From a virus: DNA of 64,000 bases. The notes beneath the pieces were generated by a model that saw only the letters and a program-made list of their open reading frames with translations, did no database searches and had not been told where the DNA came from. Of this stretch, positions 6,222 to 52,411 are shown piece by piece (the stretch's first letter is position 1; each line of letters opens with the position of its first letter). The stretch lies in IMG/VR virus record IMGVR_UViG_3300021478_000001, positions 22,934-86,933 of that record; one strand, 5' to 3'. Both the position numbers and the translations under genes were made by a program.

Positions 6222-8210
6222 ATGCCGATTATACCATGGGAGTGTGCACATGGTGATACACCATCTGTCTCGCTGCCATGTGCATCTACTGTTGCGATTG
6301 CGCCGCTTGATGATTCGGTAGATACGAACAATGTTATAATCACTGGTTCGGGGACTATTACTTCATTTGGACTCGGGCCATTAGTCACCAAACAAGTTAC
6401 GTTTGAACCAAGTGGATCCATCGTATTAACTCATAGTGCTTCGTTATCGTTGCTTGGTCATGCAACAAGGACAATCACTAATATATCTGTAGGAAAATAT
6501 TCCTGTGACGGTGCAGGTAATTGGATAGAATTAAGTTTTACTGATACTGTTGTAGGAGGTGGATCTGGTGGTGGTCCGGGAGCAACTGGTCCAACAGGTC
6601 CTACAGGACCGACTGGTCCAGCTGGTTCTTCTGGCGGTGCCACTGGTCCGCGTGGTGCAACTGGTCCTACAGGACCAACTGGATCCACTGGTCCTACAGG
6701 ACCACAAGGAATTGTTGGTCCGACTGGCGCGACTGGTATTACAGGATCGGCTGGAGTTGTTGGACCAATTGGACCAACGGGTCCGCAAGGTAATGTTGGT
6801 TCTACAGGAACGACTGGAGCAACAGGTCCACAAGGAACTGCTGGATCACCTGGAGGTGCCACTGGACCAACTGGTCCTGCTGGCATAAATGGTGCGACTG
6901 GAGCGACGGGTGCATCAGGTTCTCCTGGTTCTCCTGGAGGAGCAACAGGAGTTACCGGCCCGACTGGTCCACAAGGAATAGTTGGTCCAACTGGCCCAAT
7001 AGGAGTTACAGGACCGACAGGTTTACAAGGACTAGCTGGTCCAACTGGACCAACTGGTTTAACAGGAATTACTGGACCAACTGGTTTGCAGGGAATAGCT
7101 GGTCCTACTGGTCCACAAGGAGTAGTTGGACCAACTGGTCCTATAGGGTTGACAGGTACGACTGGTCCGACAGGAGTTGGTACGACCGGCGCTACTGGTG
7201 TAACAGGTCCTATTGGAGTTACTGGACCTATTGGGCCAACAGGAGGAGCTGGACTAGCAGGACCAACTGGTCCAACTGGACCGTCAGGATCTGCTGGAGG
7301 GGTTGGACCAGCAGGAACTACCGGAGCAACTGGACCTACAGGATCTGCTGGTGGTGCAGGTCCACAGGGAGTAACAGGTCCTACTGGACCATCAGGATCT
7401 GCTGGTGGTGTAGGAACTACCGGAGCAACTGGACCGACTGGTCCAATAGGATCGGCTACGGTTTTGTGTGGTTGGATTGCTGGGTTAACACTTTCGAATG
7501 ACGGTACGACGCCAACGACCAAGCTTGATATTGCCGCCGGTCAAGCCGCCGACAGTGGCAACGCCGCGCTGATCAGTATCGGCGCGTTCATCAAGGCGAT
7601 CAGCGGCGCGTGGGTTTTTGGTTCCGGCAACAACGGCATGGGCAACGGACTCACTGTTGCCGCGAACACTTGGTATCACGTTATCCTGGCGAACAATAAC
7701 GGCACGCCGGATATCTACTTCGATACCTCGGTAACTGGAGCAAACAGGCCAAGCGGTATTTCTGATACCAAAGTTCGTCGTATCGGCTCGTTCAAGACCA
7801 ACGCCTCGTCGCAGATTATCGCGTTCATTCAGAACGGTGAAGAGTTTTTGTGGGCTATTCCGGTCACTGATTATAGCGCTCAGGGTCAAGGAGCGACGGC
7901 TAATCTTTATGTCTTGTCGGTGCCGACAGGAGTTCAAGTTTGGGCGATATTCTCAATCCAAATTAACGGCACGACAATAGTAACAAACTTGCTGGTCTAT
8001 TCTCCAGACATGGGCTCCGGTCTTACGGCAACCATGGGATCAGGCGGCATTACAACGCGCATGGGAGCGGCAAACTCGGTCAGCGCCACTATCCCTGCTC
8101 CAGTGCGAACCAATACTAGCGGTCAGGTCTATGTTGTTCAGAACGCCGCTGGTAACAGCTTCTCACTCACGACTTTGGGTTGGATAGATCGGCGCGGTAT
8201 GGACGCGTGA
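6222..8210 (+). CDS. collagen-like fibre protein (G-X-T rich) with C-terminal beta domain
   Basis: Long Gly-X-Y tract (GPT/GAT/GVT) about 6570-7450, flanked by globular domains. Confidence 0.85.
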
Positions 8211-20689: not shown

Positions 20690-23600
20690 TGGCTGACCAA
20701 TATGAAGAACTAAGACTGCAAGTAAACTTGCAGGACAATGCGTCTACCGGACTAGTTGCGCTTAAGAAACAATTGGACGAATTAAGCAGGTCTGGGATAG
20801 CTGAAAGATTTAGAGATCAAGCTTCTATTTTTGAACGAAGCATGAAAGCTTTAGGAGTAGAAGCAACAGGTGCAGCCAAGTCTCTAAAAGAATTAGCTGG
20901 CCAATACAGCGGCTTGCTAGGTGGAGCGGTAGCTGTTGGATTTGCCAGCTACAAGATACAAGAAAATTTCCGTAACCTGACAGGGGAAATAAATGAAACG
21001 CGGATAGCGGCTGAAGAACTTGGAATTGCTTATTCTGAATTGCATCATATTAATGAGGAATTGAGTAAGTCCGGTTATTCTGTTGCTGAGTCTACAAAGC
21101 TTGCAGCGCAAGTTGAAAATGCTATGTATGAAGCACGTAAACATCGTGTTTCACAGATGTTTCAGGACCTGATTACTATGACTGCGCGTCCTGATATTAT
21201 GTTGACTTTTCGCAAGGAGTTGGCGGAGAGTAAAGACACCGCAGATGGTATTGCAGCTTTTCTAAGAATGAATAAGGCAGCTTCTGATTCAATTGCTAAG
21301 AATAATGTGGATGCTGATAAGCACCGTATCGCAACTGATAGTGCCCGTGCTAGGGAACGTCTAAACCAAGCGGCAGGCGTTACCATTGATCTTAATCGTG
21401 TAAGAGATATTGGAAAAGAAACTGAGGAAGAAAAAGCACGAAATGAAGCGTTAGCCGCTAGTGTTAAGACATTGAATGAACAATGGGCCGCTACTGAAGT
21501 TAATTTGACTCGGATAAGAGATGTGATTCTTTTGCCCATTATTAGTGAAGGTAGTGTATTCTCTAATTTTGTTAAAGGAGGCGCTAAGACTACTGATGAA
21601 ATAGCTACTAAGATGGAAGCTTGGCAAGCAGGATTGAAAGGCAGCTTCTGGGATTTTTTCAAAATACCTCCTGGAATTCAAGCTCTTGTTGATAGATTAT
21701 TAGGAATATCAAATAAAGGAATGGGTGGTGGACCTCAAGGTGGTGCTCCATTTGGAAAAGGTGGTCCACCATTTGGAAAGGAGGGGTTTAAATCTCCTCC
21801 TACTAGTCCAGTACAAACTCATGATATGCTTGGACCAGTTACTAAAGGACCGGAACTTGTAGCGCCTCCACTAAAATCAGATTTAGGAAATGATATAGGC
21901 ATCAATGCTCCCATTTTAAATCAAAAGAATCAAAATAGAAAATGGGGACCAATGGATTTGATGCCTGGTTCCGATATGTTGCGTTTTAGCGGAGGTGGCG
22001 GTGATCAGCTTGGTTATCCTTGGAATCAGATGCGTAAGTCAACAAATATTGAAGATCGCCGCGCTGAAGGCGAAGAATTTATGAAGCGCCGTGAGGAAAA
22101 TACCAAACTGCTTATTCAAGTAAATGACAGACTGTTTGCTTTGTTGCAGCCACAAGGGGATACACAATCTCCAGCATTTCGCGGGCTTGGTGGCTTGCCA
22201 GGACTTGGTGGACGCGCCGGACCCGGTTATGGTAGAGGGCCAAGTGCTGCGCCAAGTGCTGCGCCAAGTGCTGCGCCAAGTGCTGCGCCAAGTGTAGGTC
22301 CAAGCGGAACGCGTGATAGGGGGACTGGACCTAACGTTACTGCTCCGTTAGGTCCGCCTCCGGCAGGAGGACCATTAACTCCGGAGGGAATGGCTCTTCT
22401 TGATACCATTGCAACACGGGAGGCTGAACCAGCCTTCAAGGACAACAAACGAGCTGGATGGGATGTGGGTGTTGGTGGTAAGTCATTAGATGTCAGTAAT
22501 CCTCCTGTTAATAAACCAGGAGCAACATATTCATATCACGGAGAAACTATAGATATTGGTGGCGTTGAGATGCATCCTCACCACCAGTATCCAGGTTGGG
22601 GTGGTTTTCGAGGAGGGGCTGGTACATCTTTTGCATTTGGCCGTTATCAAGAAACGGTCCTAACTTATTATGAGAATGTCAGGAGAAGTCAGAAGCTGCA
22701 TCCTGGAATGAAGGTCGATGGTTGGTCACCAGAGGCACAGAACATTCGTAACTGGGATAAAGCTCAAGAGGTTTATCGCCGTAATTATTCGAAGACAGGA
22801 GTCCAAGATCTCACTGGTGACTTGCAAAAAGATCTAGAAGCCAATAAGGGTAATCCAGAAGCTATTGGACGAATGTCTGGTGCATTGAGTGGTGAGTGGA
22901 CTTCTGCTCCTGGTGGTCGTGAAGGATCAAAGGTTACTGGTGGCAAAGTTCAGTATTATGGCGCTACATTTCAGAAGATGTTGGAAGCACAGACTAAAGT
23001 TCCTGCAACAGCAAAAGGAGCTCCTGGTGGTGGTCTTGGCCAGCTTGGAAGAGCTGCGGCCTCGCCCTCGCCAGTTGGTGATGCAACTCTTCAAGAAAAT
23101 GTTAAGTTTCTTGAAGAAAGAGGTGGTCATAGTGAGATTAATAGGAAGAGTGGACCAATTGGTGCAACCGGACAAATAAATCCTGAATTTATTGCTCGTA
23201 TGGTTGCTGCCGGTAAAGATTATGAGAAGGAAACTGGCAAGAAAGCAGTGTTTGGTGAGTTTGATCGTGACTATGCCACTCAGCAGTATTATAGGTCTGA
23301 ATATTTAAGAACTCATCAAGGACTAGCTGCTCCTGCTGGAACATCTAGGCATGAACATGCTGAGAGGGGAGCTGGAGATTTACCTACAAGTGATTTTCGT
23401 ACTTGGATGGAGGCCAATCGAGAAAAATATGGGATTGAAGGTTTGCCTGGACATGCTGGAGTTGTGGATCGCCCACATCAGCAGATGTCCAGGATCTATA
23501 AAGGACCATCATTTTATCATCCAACAGCAGCGACTGCGAAATCTCCTGCTGATCAAGCACCAACTACAGCGCCGTCCACCAATCGTGGGGTGGCTATTTT

Positions 23601-46839: not shown

Positions 46840-46916
46840 TGGCGGGAGCGACGGGACTCGAACCCGCGACCTTCGGCGTGACAAGCCGATACTCTAACCA
46901 ACTGAGCTACGCTCCC
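46840..46916 (-). tRNA. tRNA-Asp (GUC)
   Basis: GGGAGCG acceptor stem, D arm, TCGGC-TTGTCAC-GCCGA anticodon arm, GGTTCGAGTCC T arm, encoded CCA. Confidence 0.95.
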
Positions 46917-47829: not shown

Positions 47830-48108
47830 CTAGTCCTCCGGTTGATGGTGTTTGTGCAAAGGGGCAGCACTGGCACAGCCGCGAAAGTGTGCTAGAGGCA
47901 GTGGCGCGTGCAGATCAGCGGTCAAATCTGTCACTGTGCAATGCAGAGCTCGTGCCAGTTCATTGACACGTTTTACGCTTGGTCTTACTCTATCACTCTC
48001 ATAGCTGTGTATTGTTGATGTTGTCAGTTTGAGTGCTGCGGCTAACTCCTTCTGTGTCATTCTACGGTAGTTGCGTATGGCTGCAAGACGACGACCATAA
48101 ATTCTCAT
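47830..48108 (-). CDS. XRE-family HTH transcriptional regulator
   Basis: RLAAIRNYRRMTQKELAAAL....STIHSYESDRVRPS...LARAL; start re-called at 48108 after GGAGAAAGGA (the longer ORF runs into the array). Confidence 0.85.
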   Translation of the reverse strand: MRIYGRRLAAIRNYRRMTQKELAAALKLTTSTIHSYESDRVRPSVKRVNELARALHCTVTDLTADLHAPLPLAHFRGCASAAPLHKHHQPED

Positions 48109-48134
48109 TCCTTTCTCCACTAGTAGAAACTGAT

Positions 48135-49260
48135 AGAACGCTCTTCTGCTTGCGATACTTTCTGTGTGCACGGCTCGCTCTTGCTTGACGATACTTTCTG
48201 TGTACACGGCTCGCTCGTTCATGCCGGTTACGACTCGCTCTTAGATTGCGATACTTTCTTTGGGAACGGCTCGCTCTTGCTTGACGATACTTTCCATGTG
48301 CACGGCTTGCTCGTTATGTTCGGTACTCTCAGGATTTCGGCTTGCTCTTAGTATACGATACTTTCCGGGACTATGGCTCGCTCTTGCTTGACGATACTTT
48401 CGTGAACTCTCGGCTCGCTTCTTGTCGTCGTTACTTTCGCTTTACACGACTCGCTCGCAAGATACAGTACTCTTGTGGTGCGCGGCTCACTCGTGCTTAA
48501 CGATACTTTCGGCATTCTAGGTTCGCTGTGTCTTTTCGATACTCTCCGGGAGGACGGCTCGCTCGTATCGTACGTTACTTTCTATCAGGTCGGCTCACTC
48601 TGGAATTACGATACTGTCGATTCACCCGGTTCACTTATCCGCAACGATACTGTCTACTGACACGGTTCACTCATTATCGTCGATACTTTCTACTGGCTCG
48701 GTTCACTCTCTAGTTACGTTACTTTTTCCAAGAGCTAGGTTTACTCATGATTCGCTACTATCCTAAACGCGGCTCGCTCGGACCTCATGTTACTGTCTCC
48801 TTCAACGGCTCGCTCACCAATGTTGTTACTTTCTTAGGGATCGGCTCGCTCAGGCTCCACGTTACTGTCTCCAGCTTTGGCTCGCTCACAAGATTTTCGC
48901 TCACGATGGCTCGCTCCGCATCGTCGATACTTTCGGAATTCTCGGCTCGCTTCTTGTCGTCGTTACTTTCGGCGAATTCGGCTCGGTTCACTCCACTTCG
49001 ACGTCACTGTCAATAGCCTCGGATCACTCTATTGCTTCGATGCTATCTTGCTATTCGATTCACTCCTCTGTTCAGATACTATTCATGGAAGACGGTTCAC
49101 TCACTCCACCGTGCCGTTACTTTCTGGTTCTTCGGCTCGCTCATGACTCATGTTACTTTCTTGACTTACGGCTCTCTTCAGCTCGCTCACTTTACTCGTT
49201 ACTCTCTGGGACTTCGGCTCGCTCATGACTCATGTTACTTTCTGGACCTTCGGCTGGTCT
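48135..49260 (-). ncRNA. dual-repeat 36-nt array 1 (TIGR-like guide array), about 30 units
   Basis: + strand CGGYTCRCTC-N8-CGWTACTDTC-N8; repeat A at 48171, 48207, 48267, 48303...49215, 49251, with a few indel units. Confidence 0.85.
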
Positions 49261-50167
49261 TCTTAGGCTCCTCTTGTGCTATATTTTCGTTGGCTGTGCG
49301 ATCCCTCCTTTCAATTTCTTCTCCCAGCGGTCCCTTGTAATATGCTTTGGCAAAGCCCGGGAACATGTGAGTATTGGGAATTTCTATTTCATGAGTATGT
49401 CCCATGATGGCAATGGCAAACGGCTTGACAGGAGGTGTGCCATAATGGTCCCAATACATCAAGGCGTGCAAGTGACTGAGAAACATCTTGGCTACATAGT
49501 TGCACGCTTGACTGTCGATGGTGATTGCCGGCAGCTTGCCAGTTTTTAGGAGTGCCATGACTTCAGGTGTCCTTGTCCTAAAAGTTTTGGCCCGCTCGGC
49601 ATTCATGCCGGTTTCATTTTTGTTGACCACATAGTCTTTACGCACTTCATAGATTTGGCGGTAGTAGGCGTTCTTGTCTTTCTGCAGTCTTTTGACACAC
49701 TGCCCGAGGTGCCAGCAGATCTGCCGCAGATCGGCATTGTATGGCCGCTTCTGTCCTTTCTCCCATACCATATCAGGATTTAATCCAGCGAATGACCAGA
49801 AGTGTCCGGCGGTTGGTGCCTTGGTTATATCCAAGTGTGCCAGCAATCCTGATGTGATGACAGGACCTATGCCATCATTAGATTGGCACCAACGCCCGAG
49901 TTGAGTGCTGTCGGCATACACCTGGAGTCCTTTCATAATTTCAGATTCAATGACAGCGAATGAATCTGCTGATTTGTTTAACAACATTGGTAGAATTGGA
50001 GCTCCATCCTTTTCTCCTAGATGACGCAATTGCATATCATTGCGCTTGCGCATTTCCTGTGCGGTGTAGTAATTAGCAACCAAGAATCTAGCTTCTGGAT
50101 TGCTAAGGTTGGCCGCTTGCAATACTACTTCTTTGCCGAAACGTGGAACTAGGCTAGCTCTTTTCAT
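49235..50167 (-). CDS. IS110/Nop-domain RNA-binding protein lacking RuvC (TasA-like)
   Basis: Coiled coil, then GIGPVITSGLLA and FWSFAGLNP (Transposase_20/Nop region); no DEDD RuvC domain; AGGAG RBS before MKRAS; flanked by arrays on both sides. Confidence 0.8.
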   Translation of the reverse strand: MKRASLVPRFGKEVVLQAANLSNPEARFLVANYYTAQEMRKRNDMQLRHLGEKDGAPILPMLLNKSADSFAVIESEIMKGLQVYADSTQLGRWCQSNDGIGPVITSGLLAHLDITKAPTAGHFWSFAGLNPDMVWEKGQKRPYNADLRQICWHLGQCVKRLQKDKNAYYRQIYEVRKDYVVNKNETGMNAERAKTFRTRTPEVMALLKTGKLPAITIDSQACNYVAKMFLSHLHALMYWDHYGTPPVKPFAIAIMGHTHEIEIPNTHMFPGFAKAYYKGPLGEEIERRDRTANENIAQEEPKKTSRRSRK

Positions 50168-50183
50168 AGTACACTCCTGTTGA

Positions 50184-50818
50184 CGGTACACTCATTAACG
50201 GTTCACTCTTGTGCTGCGATATTATCAATGATCTCGGATCACTCCCTTGCGACGATACTATCAATTGGACTCGGTTCACTCTTGGACTACGATACTCTCG
50301 ATGCGTGCGGTTCACTCTAGGACCGCGATACTTTCTATCACTACGGCTCACTCTGCGTTGTCGGTACACTTCATAGTCACGGTTCACTCTTGTCTTTCCG
50401 ATACTATCATGAAAGACGGTTCACTCAACTTCGACGATACATTCTGCCGTTCCGGTTCACTCCCAAATTACGATACTATCATTAGAGACGGTTCACTCTT
50501 TGATAACAATACTGTCTGCGCGTATGGTTCACTCCGTGATTGCGATACTGTCGGACAGATTGGTTCACTCTTGGATAACGATACTGTCAGCTGACACAGT
50601 TCACTCATGTGTTGCGGTACTTTCTGCCCAAAGCGGTTCGCTCATATTCTACGATACCTTCCACACTTGCGGCTCGCTCTTGTTTTACGATACTTTCATG
50701 AACAACGGCTCGCTCCTTTAACACGATACTTTCCAGACTTTACGGCTCGCTTACCACGATACTTTGACGTACCGGCTCGCTCTTGTGATACGTTACTTTC
50801 TGAGCTTATGACTCGCTA
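50184..50818 (-). ncRNA. dual-repeat 36-nt array 2, about 17 units
   Basis: Repeat A at 50199, 50235, 50272, 50308...50773, 50809, alternating with repeat B. Confidence 0.85.
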
Positions 50819-51094
50819 GTGCAGAGTCATCTTGATAGGTTGCCACCATTGTTGTGTTTCATAGCAGTAGAATTTCAAACTATCTACTGCTCGCTTGGTG
50901 ACAAACAACGGAATCATATCACGATGTCTGCATGTCGGCTTGTTAGCAGCGAAGCACTCACAGTGGAGACGTCCTCGGCTGTAGCGGATGTTGTAGACTT
51001 CTTGGACATTGAGAAGGAAGTCAAACTTCACCATACGATAACCGCCGGGAGTTCTTTTAAGATTATATACGCTCTCAGTTCCCGATACTTTCAT
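50816..51094 (-). CDS. SWIM-type zinc-finger protein
   Basis: Y.I......LHCECFAANKPTCRH (CxC-x6-CxH). Confidence 0.7.
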   Translation of the reverse strand: MKVSGTESVYNLKRTPGGYRMVKFDFLLNVQEVYNIRYSRGRLHCECFAANKPTCRHRDMIPLFVTKRAVDSLKFYCYETQQWWQPIKMTLH

Positions 51095-51721
51095 TTTGTA
51101 CGGCTCGCTCGATCTCTACGATACTTTCGGAGCCAACGGCTCGCTCTTCGAGAGTGATACTTTCAAACCTCTCGGCTCGCTCCAGACTTACAGTACTCTC
51201 CACACTCGCGGCTCGCTCTGTATTCGCGATACTATCTTAGTCACCGGCTCACTCTGTCACTGCGATACTGACGAAACAAACGGCTCGCTCCGGTCTGTCG
51301 ATACAATCGTTCGTACCGGCTCGCTTTGTGCACACGATACTATCTGAGCACACGGCTCACTCTACCACCACGATACTTTCTTAGGAGTCGGCTCGCTTCG
51401 GTCTTACAGTACTCTCCGCACTCGCGGCTCGCTCGTCTACAACGGTACTATCAAGGTAGGCGGCTCGCTCACCACAAATACGATAACTTTCATCTTACGC
51501 GGCTCACTCCTAAGTTTCGGTACTCTCATTAGGTGCCGGTTCACTCCTAAGAGACGATACTTTCCTTTTTCACGGTTCACTCTTTTCCAACAATACTATC
51601 ATACTGCGTGGTTCACTCTGTTCCTACAGTACTCTCATGATGAGCGGTTCACTCTTAAGTAACGATACTTTCCCTTTTTACGGTTCACTCTCAGAAGGCG
51701 GTACTCTCATGACGAACGGTT
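51070..51721 (-). ncRNA. dual-repeat 36-nt array 3, about 18 units
   Basis: Repeat A at 51101, 51137, 51173...51461, 51500, 51537...51681, 51717; near-perfect 36-nt phase. Confidence 0.85.
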
Positions 51722-52411
51722 TTATTCCCAGATGCGATTTAGATTCTGCACTACAACATCATCACGTGATAGTTGCTTTAGATGTTCTATGAAATTTCCC
51801 ATTATATCTTCTTTGCTTTCAATTTTATCATCAAACACATGACGCATAAGTTGACGATAATACTCGCCCATGATTTTAAAATTCATTGGCGTGACAGTAG
51901 GATCTGATGCCCAATCTATTCCTCCATTTCTGGGTACCAACGCATAACGACTAATCTGTTTTGGTTCTATGGTGGCATAGTAGCAAACTGTCCCCATATA
52001 TTCAATGCTTTTTTCCCACATATGGCTAAAGTCAGAAAGCGCGCGCTTGCGAAACCATATCACGCGCTCTTTCATGTTGTTCTTCCATCTGGGTAGTTCA
52101 TTGCCCATGTGGTCCTGTACATTTATTCCTTCTTCGTAGTGGCGCGTGGCTTGCTCCAGAAAGTCTTCATCTGGTGCCAGCCGATAGCGCTTGAGATCAT
52201 TAGTATTGGTTTCCAGCACAACCATCCGTTCGCCTCCTTGACAGGCGTTTGATGCGAAGTACAACGCATAGGTCGTTGTCAAGTATACTGCACGGGCATT
52301 GCTGCTGACAGTGTGTTTCCAGTTATCAATGCCAATTTTGCCACGCGGCTTTATTCCTTCTTTTAGGATGGCTTCCAAGTGGCGTTCAGCAGTACCGTGG
52401 TATATCCTCAC
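51722..52411 (-). CDS. ADP-ribosyltransferase-fold protein (Tpt1/KptA-like motif pattern)
   Basis: IYHGT...ILKEGIKP...AVYLTT..A..FA.......VVLE. Confidence 0.6.
   Translation of the reverse strand: MRIYHGTAERHLEAILKEGIKPRGKIGIDNWKHTVSSNARAVYLTTTYALYFASNACQGGERMVVLETNTNDLKRYRLAPDEDFLEQATRHYEEGINVQDHMGNELPRWKNNMKERVIWFRKRALSDFSHMWEKSIEYMGTVCYYATIEPKQISRYALVPRNGGIDWASDPTVTPMNFKIMGEYYRQLMRHVFDDKIESKEDIMGNFIEHLKQLSRDDVVVQNLNRIWE

Follow-up and report, generated by a model that had tools for sequence, protein, structure and literature searches.

Evidence for a Dual-Repeat TIGR-TasA System in a Tailed Soil Phage

Introduction

Tandem arrays of short repeats around a gene for an RNA-binding protein raise the question of whether they encode guide RNAs, how such guides would mature, and where their targets lie. 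We address this question for a 64,000-nucleotide (nt) stretch of viral DNA (positions 22,934 to 86,933 of IMG/VR record IMGVR_UViG_3300021478_000001; hereafter the window), which is the 3' part of one 86,933-bp contig. In it, three arrays of 36-nt units accompany a gene for a protein of 310 amino acids (aa). By sequence and fold, this protein is a Tas protein, of the TasA subtype in the nomenclature of Faure et al. (PMC12045711), and the locus is very probably a dual-repeat TIGR-TasA system carried by a tailed soil phage, with a mechanism inferred from that of its relatives.

TIGR repeats are 8-12 nt long and are usually separated by 9-nt spacers; each guide of the SpTIGR system contains 16 nt of spacer (Faure et al. 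2025, PMC12045711). FpTasA binds 36-nt guides, or tigRNAs (PMC12045711). The literature lists 20,096 tas loci, and Xu et al. (bioRxiv 10.64898/2026.09.09.750476) count 65,635 guides in 4,126 dual-repeat arrays. Arrays occur on either or both sides of tas, dual-repeat arrays sometimes overlap its coding sequence, and TasA is described as a guide-dependent, RNA-guided transcriptional repressor (10.64898/2026.09.09.750476). For MbTasA and PlTasA, RNA-guided DNA binding and transcriptional repression have been shown experimentally (10.64898/2026.09.09.750476, 10.64898/2026.08.11.744272).

As a kind of system, the locus adds nothing to this picture; TIGR-Tas was described in 2025 and thousands of arrays have been catalogued. 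It is of value as a specimen, which combines a near-complete-looking phage contig, a large guide set and natural variants that differ by whole guide units. Two leads are offered by it: a Tyr-to-Phe change in the pair of residues used for guide processing, and unit-wise turnover of the arrays among natural variants.

Anatomy of the Arrays

The arrays are read on the minus strand, where a repeat GAGYGARCCG (edge repeat) alternates with a second repeat, GAHAGTAWCG (loop repeat), and variable 8-nt segments (spacers) lie between them. A preliminary description of this DNA had proposed such an alternation of 10-nt repeats and 8-nt segments with a 36-nt period, in arrays of 30, 17 and 18 units. Motif counts, Tandem Repeats Finder and the 49 units that parse as exactly 10+8+10+8 nt (36 nt) bear this out, and the array lengths correspond to about 31, 18 and 18 unit lengths, or some 67 for the three co-oriented arrays together. 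About 12 further units have variable segments of 5-9 nt or longer, or degenerate repeats; most of these are located in array 1 and at array ends.

The edge motif GAG[CT]GA[AG]CC[GA] occurs 47 times on the minus strand of the window, in all 47 cases within 48139-51721, and the loop motif GA[ACT]AGTA[AT]CG occurs 33 times, 32 of them in the same interval. The plus strand and the 22.9 kb of the genome outside the window contain neither exact motif; approximately 0.4-0.5 matches per strand would be expected by chance. The two motifs take turns at 18-nt spacing, and Tandem Repeats Finder reports a period of 36 throughout. Most repeat positions carry 1.2-2.0 bits of information, with less at degenerate ones (e.g., loop position 3), and spacer positions are mostly close to 0 bits, with a maximum of 0.5 bit at the first base of spacer B.

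The array boundaries are informative. Half edge repeats stand at array ends: AACCG at 51721, GAGCG at 51074-51070 and 48143-48139, and GAGTG at 50176-50172. Both here and in related loci, arrays open with the 3' half of an edge repeat and close with its 5' half, GAGCG, which points to cleavage between GAGCG and AGCCG and a 36-nt guide of the form AGCCG-N8-loop-N8-GAGCG. Array 2 and array 1 are fitted closely around the tasA gene. The final edge of array 2, GAGTG, stops four bases before the tasA ATG, and its last, shortened unit provides the AGGAG ribosome-binding site of the gene. At the other end, the first unit of array 1 (AGCCG-AAGGTCCA-GAAAGTAACA-...) overlaps the final 7 codons of tasA, whose stop codon TAA falls within the loop repeat. 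The 3' end of array 1 reads ...GAAAGTATCG-CAAGCAGA(A)-GAGCG.

Rfam gave no match at E <= 1. CRISPR-Cas was also considered and rejected; the units have two 10-nt repeats with 8-nt spacers, and there is no cas-like neighbor.

A Tas Protein without a Nuclease

Translation of tasA starts at the ATG at 50167 (MKRA..., as in homologues). The product contains GIGP...WSFAGLNP, and its sole Pfam match is Transposase_20, the Nop-like C-terminal domain of IS110 transposases (residues 96-169, E 7.5e-5); it also matches PHROG 4285, labelled 'transposase'. When PDB sequences were searched with phmmer, the best matches were SpTasH (3e-8) and TaTasR (9mty, 6.8e-6). An AlphaFold 2 (AF2) model built from a 50-sequence alignment reached a predicted local distance difference test (pLDDT) score of 90.6. 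It shows a helical hairpin, the coiled coil (helices 23-50 and 58-86), followed by the Nop domain; helix 1 begins at residue 12. The top Foldseek matches of the model are the TasH-tigRNA complexes 9vzx, 21kl and 9w03 (E ~1e-6, probability 1.0), followed by TasR (9mty, probability 1.0) and then by IS621/ISCro4 (E 0.02-0.2).

Neither Pfam nor the AF2 model revealed a DEDD/RuvC or HNH domain, and the N-terminal HNH segment of SpTasH has no counterpart in the alignment. Since array 2 ends four bases before the start codon, there is also no room for a missing N-terminal domain. Thus, the open reading frame (ORF), Pfam and the model agree with the earlier claim of a 310-aa gene with a coiled coil and the GIGP...WSFAGLNP region and without RuvC DEDD, and the comparison with Tas and IS110 proteins that had been suggested placed TasH and TasR first and IS621 after them. 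The C-terminal tail, including the part just before array 1, is translated and under selection, because all nine substitutions listed between phage variants in 49265-49343 fall at third codon positions of tasA.

Related Loci

A database search with TasA yielded 689 homologues at E <= 1e-3, mostly 275-295 aa in length. We fetched 85 related loci for comparison. A segment of period 36 adjoins tas in 69 of them and one of period 34-37 in five more, i.e., in at least 74 of 85, and most of the remaining loci are contigs with little or no flanking sequence. This association, together with sequence, fold and array anatomy, supports the proposal that the locus is a TIGR array with a nuclease-less TasA. 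Canonical units are almost always on the tas strand (1201 vs 2 on the opposite strand). Periods of 37, 35, 35, 34 and 37 nt in L039, L052, L070, L075 and L028, respectively, indicate that the unit length is not fixed at 36 across this TasA family.

The edge repeat is close to GAGCGAGCC(G/A) throughout the family, and the loop repeat is more variable. The last bases of the two repeats covary: A/A was found in 42 loci, G/G in 21 and C/C in one, with no discordant case, although these loci are phylogenetically related and the 64 cases do not represent independent events. One locus, L017, has T at position 2 in both repeats. Such covariation has been ascribed to a symmetric Tas dimer that reads both repeats alike (PMC12045711), and it supports a TIGR-TasA assignment here because binding by a symmetric dimer predicts it.

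None of 10 neighboring ORFs of the window recurs in the 85 related loci, and the module is tasA plus the arrays. By a uniform count, the window has 46 canonical units; the 66 related loci counted in the same way, many of them interrupted by contig ends, have a median of 16 and at most 49. The guide set of the window is large but not unique. A tblastn search of the INPHARED phage collection with TasA gave no match at 1e-5, and a search of genome contigs detected no tasA relative.

In five related loci (L004, L005, L006, L010 and L011), an ORF of about 175 aa with a weak match to DUF7213 lies between or after the downstream arrays (Table 1). It has no homologue in the genome of the window's phage, and it may be a recurrent partner gene of a sub-clade.

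Comparison with Known Systems

The closest described system is SpTIGR-TasH of Salicola phage CGphi29 (PDB 9w03, 9w04, 21kl, 9vzx), which is also phage-encoded. We read its array directly from NC_020844. The unit, AAGCGAGCCA-N8-AAGACAACCA-N8, has the same 10+8+10+8 layout and 36-nt length as in the window, and its edge repeat AAGCGAGCCA equals GAGCGAGCCG of the window at 8 of 10 bases. SpTasH is the best match of the window TasA in both sequence and fold (coiled coil and Nop domain), at an identity of ~24%. The two systems differ in several respects. SpTasH has an N-terminal HNH nuclease and cuts DNA, whereas the window TasA has no nuclease and its clade carries an additional C-terminal motif, MFPGFxxAYYG. 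The Sp repeats end in CCA and those of the window in CG. Finally, SpTIGR consists of one downstream array of ~11 units followed by a terminator, in contrast to three arrays with genes between them and no terminator in the window.

On the basis of its repeat layout and CCG/CCA ends, the locus had been suggested to form a separate lineage. This suggestion did not hold, as SpTIGR shares the layout and most of the edge repeat, and both CCG-ending and CCA-ending repeat pairs are present within the window's own TasA family.

Dual-repeat TIGR-TasA systems (FpTIGR of Flavonifractor plautii and tasParB-linked loci with 10-nt repeats; PMC12045711) resemble the window locus: the coiled-coil/Nop protein stands alone, arrays lie upstream, downstream or on both sides and in some cases between genes, the guides are 36 nt long, and the system is carried on a mobile element. 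FpTIGR has 9+9-nt spacers instead of 8+8, FpTasA being compared by its description only, and no ParB-like gene accompanies the window locus. The overlap of the tasA 3' end with array 1 also has parallels in some dual-repeat loci of 10.64898/2026.09.09.750476. Stem-loop TIGR-TasA systems (MbTasA, PlTasA; 10.64898/2026.09.09.750476, 10.64898/2026.08.11.744272) likewise have a nuclease-less TasA, but their guides are framed by hairpins and the proteins are without the C-terminal Tyr/His loop, whereas the window has plain dual repeats and has kept the loop and its His. The IS110/IS621 bridge-RNA recombinases also have a two-part guide, and their Nop-like RNA-binding domain (Transposase_20) is homologous to that of the window TasA. 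The window system lacks a DEDD catalytic domain, a single bridge RNA and element ends, and fold matches of IS621 type are weaker (E 0.02-0.2 vs 1e-6 for Tas).

Proposed Mechanism and Alternative Explanations

Processing, dimerization, DNA binding and repression by the window's TasA are proposed here by analogy with published relatives. The three arrays and tasA would be transcribed from the minus strand within a block of co-oriented genes. TasA may dimerize via its coiled coil, with each Nop domain binding either the edge or the loop repeat of a unit. The precursor would be cut inside each edge repeat, most likely at the GAGCG/AGCCG junction, to give 36-nt tigRNAs of the form 5'-AGCCG-N8-GAAAGTATCG-N8-GAGCG-3'. 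A complex of two TasA subunits and a tigRNA could then bind a 16-bp DNA site, one 8-nt spacer pairing with each strand. Having no nuclease, the complex would block transcription or replication at the site instead of cutting it, and its targets would belong to the host or to competing mobile elements, not to the phage genome.

Several observations weigh against this proposal. About one-quarter of the units are off-length or degenerate and possibly non-functional. No array is followed by a terminator, with genes coming next instead, unlike in the typical arrays of Faure et al., and a scan for promoters and terminators detected nothing above the shuffled expectation. None of the sequencing runs that match the locus is RNA. 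In addition, no guide target was found in the phage's own genome, and a residue implicated in guide processing has been replaced; these last two points are considered below.

With the arrays masked, the 86.9-kb genome was searched for self-targets that combine spacer B with reverse-complemented spacer A, in either order, allowing a gap of 0-2 and at most 2 mismatches. Exact matches were absent, and those with 1-2 mismatches were as numerous as chance predicts. Co-occurrence of the two spacers of a guide within 30 nt, in all orientations, was likewise no more frequent in the phage genome than in re-paired controls (15 vs 18.2 +/- 4.4). It is therefore unlikely that the phage regulates its own genes via perfect or near-perfect sites. 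With no self-targets above chance, targets would be expected in host DNA or in rival elements, and the guides would point at such DNA in the same soils.

The replaced residue concerns guide maturation. SpTasH matures its guides with Tyr289 and His296, which are located on a flexible C-terminal loop of the Nop domain (PMC13421893). In the window, His257 is invariant among relatives, aligns with His296 and sits on a loop (251-258), and the partner position is seven residues upstream in both proteins; however, Tyr289 of SpTasH corresponds to Phe250. Because of this change, self-processing by the published Tyr/His chemistry is not assured. Of 118 close relatives, 105 have Phe and 11 have Tyr seven residues ahead of the invariant His. 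Most of the more distant TasA loci read PLPYPIAxxGHAH and thus retain Tyr, at the spacing of the SpTasH pair (PMC13421893). A second histidine, His259, is at least 90% conserved in the window's clade and missing in SpTasH. These data, along with the many off-length units of array 1, would fit a system of the same family whose TasA no longer cuts its own guides, so that a host RNase or another catalytic pair (His257 and His259) has taken over, or the arrays are partly decaying. We regard this as a tentative possibility. In Phe-type loci, the arrays are regular and of considerable length and stop exactly at half edge repeats, which argues that processing at a fixed site persists, and Phe and Tyr have been exchanged within the clade without a visible change in the arrays. 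Moreover, AF2 models the loop at low confidence, and the equivalence of Phe250 and Tyr289 rests on the sequence alignment.

Other explanations depart further from a dual-repeat TIGR-TasA system. The Transposase_20 match and the 'transposase' label of PHROG 4285 could indicate a truncated IS110-family transposase remnant next to unrelated tandem repeats. This appears extremely improbable, because the protein has neither a DEDD domain nor space for one, its fold is nearer to TasH/TasR than to IS621, hundreds of homologues are equally short, and the arrays accompany the gene in related loci as described above. Flanking sequences also differ from locus to locus, so no element ends travel with the gene. 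An equally implausible reading is that the 36-nt repeats code for a 12-residue protein repeat. The number 36 is divisible by 3, ORFs of 50-115 aa cross the arrays on both strands, and the final 7 tasA codons are array-encoded, but off-length units (5-9 nt) break every frame, stop codons occur in all frames within ~100 codons, the 8-nt variable segments have no codon periodicity, and related loci have periods of 34, 35 and 37 nt. Somewhat less remote, and still very unlikely, is that the guides act on RNA, either in box C/D-like modification guiding or by binding host transcripts. Like small nucleolar ribonucleoproteins, the system has a Nop domain and repeats with box C/D-like ends (PMC12045711). 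Yet TasR did not act on RNA substrates, and the targets that TasA binds and represses are DNA (PMC12045711; 10.64898/2026.09.09.750476). None of the 85 loci shows a conserved partner gene beside tasA, for example one for a fibrillarin-like methyltransferase, and spacers pair with the same strand of the phage genome no more often than chance predicts.

Array Variation among Natural Phage Variants

DNA of this phage is present in soil metagenomes of several studies. Same-phage contigs from other soil samples differ from the window at 2 of 739 nt and 1 of 1,621 nt in flanking genes, and their arrays differ through insertions and deletions (indels) that correspond to guide units. Exactly 36 nt are lost at 51100-51135. 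The 37 nt lost at 48139-48175 make up the last unit, which has a half edge repeat at either end. At 51269-51280 there is a net gain of 37 nt, two units have been duplicated and have diverged at 49024-49096, and a 55-nt replacement directly follows the tasA stop codon. Each indel joint is backed by long matches on both sides in 2-3 runs from different studies.

Within the window, near-identical spacer pairs are more frequent than expected from base-shuffled spacers (9 vs 2.3), and the final three units of array 1 are diverged copies of each other. Together, the unit indels, diverged unit copies and spacer reuse indicate that the arrays change mainly by recombination at the level of units and by duplication of units that then diverge. 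Spacers have no excess over repeats in substitutions between variants (11 of 26 vs 46% expected). Array 1, the most degenerate array, is also the most variable between phage variants and has changed far more than array 2. Between variants, there are 17 substitutions in 351 nt in the 3' third of tasA (49234-49584) and very few in the 5' two-thirds (49557-50167); the tasA 3' end and array 1 look like a region covered by a recombination tract.

A broader reading of these data, which we put forward with considerable reserve, is that the locus and its soil variants record natural change of a TIGR array by gain, loss and duplication-divergence of units at half-edge boundaries, in a clade that has replaced the Tyr/His chemistry with Phe250 plus His257/His259 or with a host RNase. 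If true, the locus would offer a natural variant in which guide maturation and array turnover could be studied, questions that the TIGR papers list as open.

Source Phage and Gene Neighborhood

The phage contig codes for a large terminase, a portal, a head protein fused to a protease, a tail sheath, a baseplate hub and tail fibers, and the sheath and hub together with the other structural genes identify a contractile-tailed phage. The 87-kb contig looks near-complete, because the main head and tail genes are present and one relative's contig is nearly equal in size. A sister contig of 87,115 bp carries a 99%-identical TasA (P0001). The terminase is less than 60% identical to those of Pseudomonas, Klebsiella and Rhizobium phages and provides a weak hint of the host.

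From approximately 45 to 64 kb of the window, every gene is on the minus strand, and the arrays and tasA lie within that block (Table 1). Judging from this gene order and the absence of promoter and terminator signals, the arrays probably belong to a longer polycistronic transcript.

Table 1. Positions of the arrays and adjacent genes in the window and, in the last three rows, of an ORF in related loci
Feature	Position	Strand	Description
Upstream neighbor	51722..52411	-	229 aa; ADP-ribosyltransferase fold
TIGR array 3 (most upstream)	51070..51721	-	~18 unit lengths, 652 nt
72-aa ORF between arrays 3 and 2	50816..51034	-	ATG at 51034; CxC-x7-CxH (SWIM-like) motif
TIGR array 2	50172..50818	-	~18 unit lengths, 647 nt
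tasA	49235..50167	-	310 aa; between arrays 2 and 1
TIGR array 1 (downstream)	48139..49255	-	~31 unit lengths, 1117 nt
Downstream neighbor	47830..48108	-	92 aa; Xre/Cro-type helix-turn-helix (HTH) regulator; starts 30 nt past array 1
~175-aa ORF, L004; L005	5659-6042; 6051-6572		Related loci
~175-aa ORF, L006	~6236-6800		Related locus
~175-aa ORF, L010/L011	1209-1424		Related loci

The 72-aa ORF has no Pfam or PHROG match, and its stop codon TAG supplies bases 1-3 of the degenerate edge repeat with which array 2 begins. As it is not kept in related loci, the ORF is probably a passenger. The 229-aa neighbor ends one base before array 3. It has a weak Pfam match to Tpt1/KptA at an N-terminal YHGT motif, and its structural neighbors in the Atlas are phage PARP-catalytic and DarT-like clusters (template modeling (TM) score 0.70-0.78). 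As neither this gene nor the HTH gene is kept in related TIGR loci, we consider both to be context outside the system.

Two other features of the window were observed. A gene for tRNA-Asp(GTC) is located at 46840-46916 on the minus strand, 1 kb downstream of the TIGR block. On the plus strand, an 868-aa ORF at 8613-11219 matches PHROG profiles of a head maturation protease (residues 218-345) and a major head protein (199-866), and appears to be a fused protease-capsid gene.

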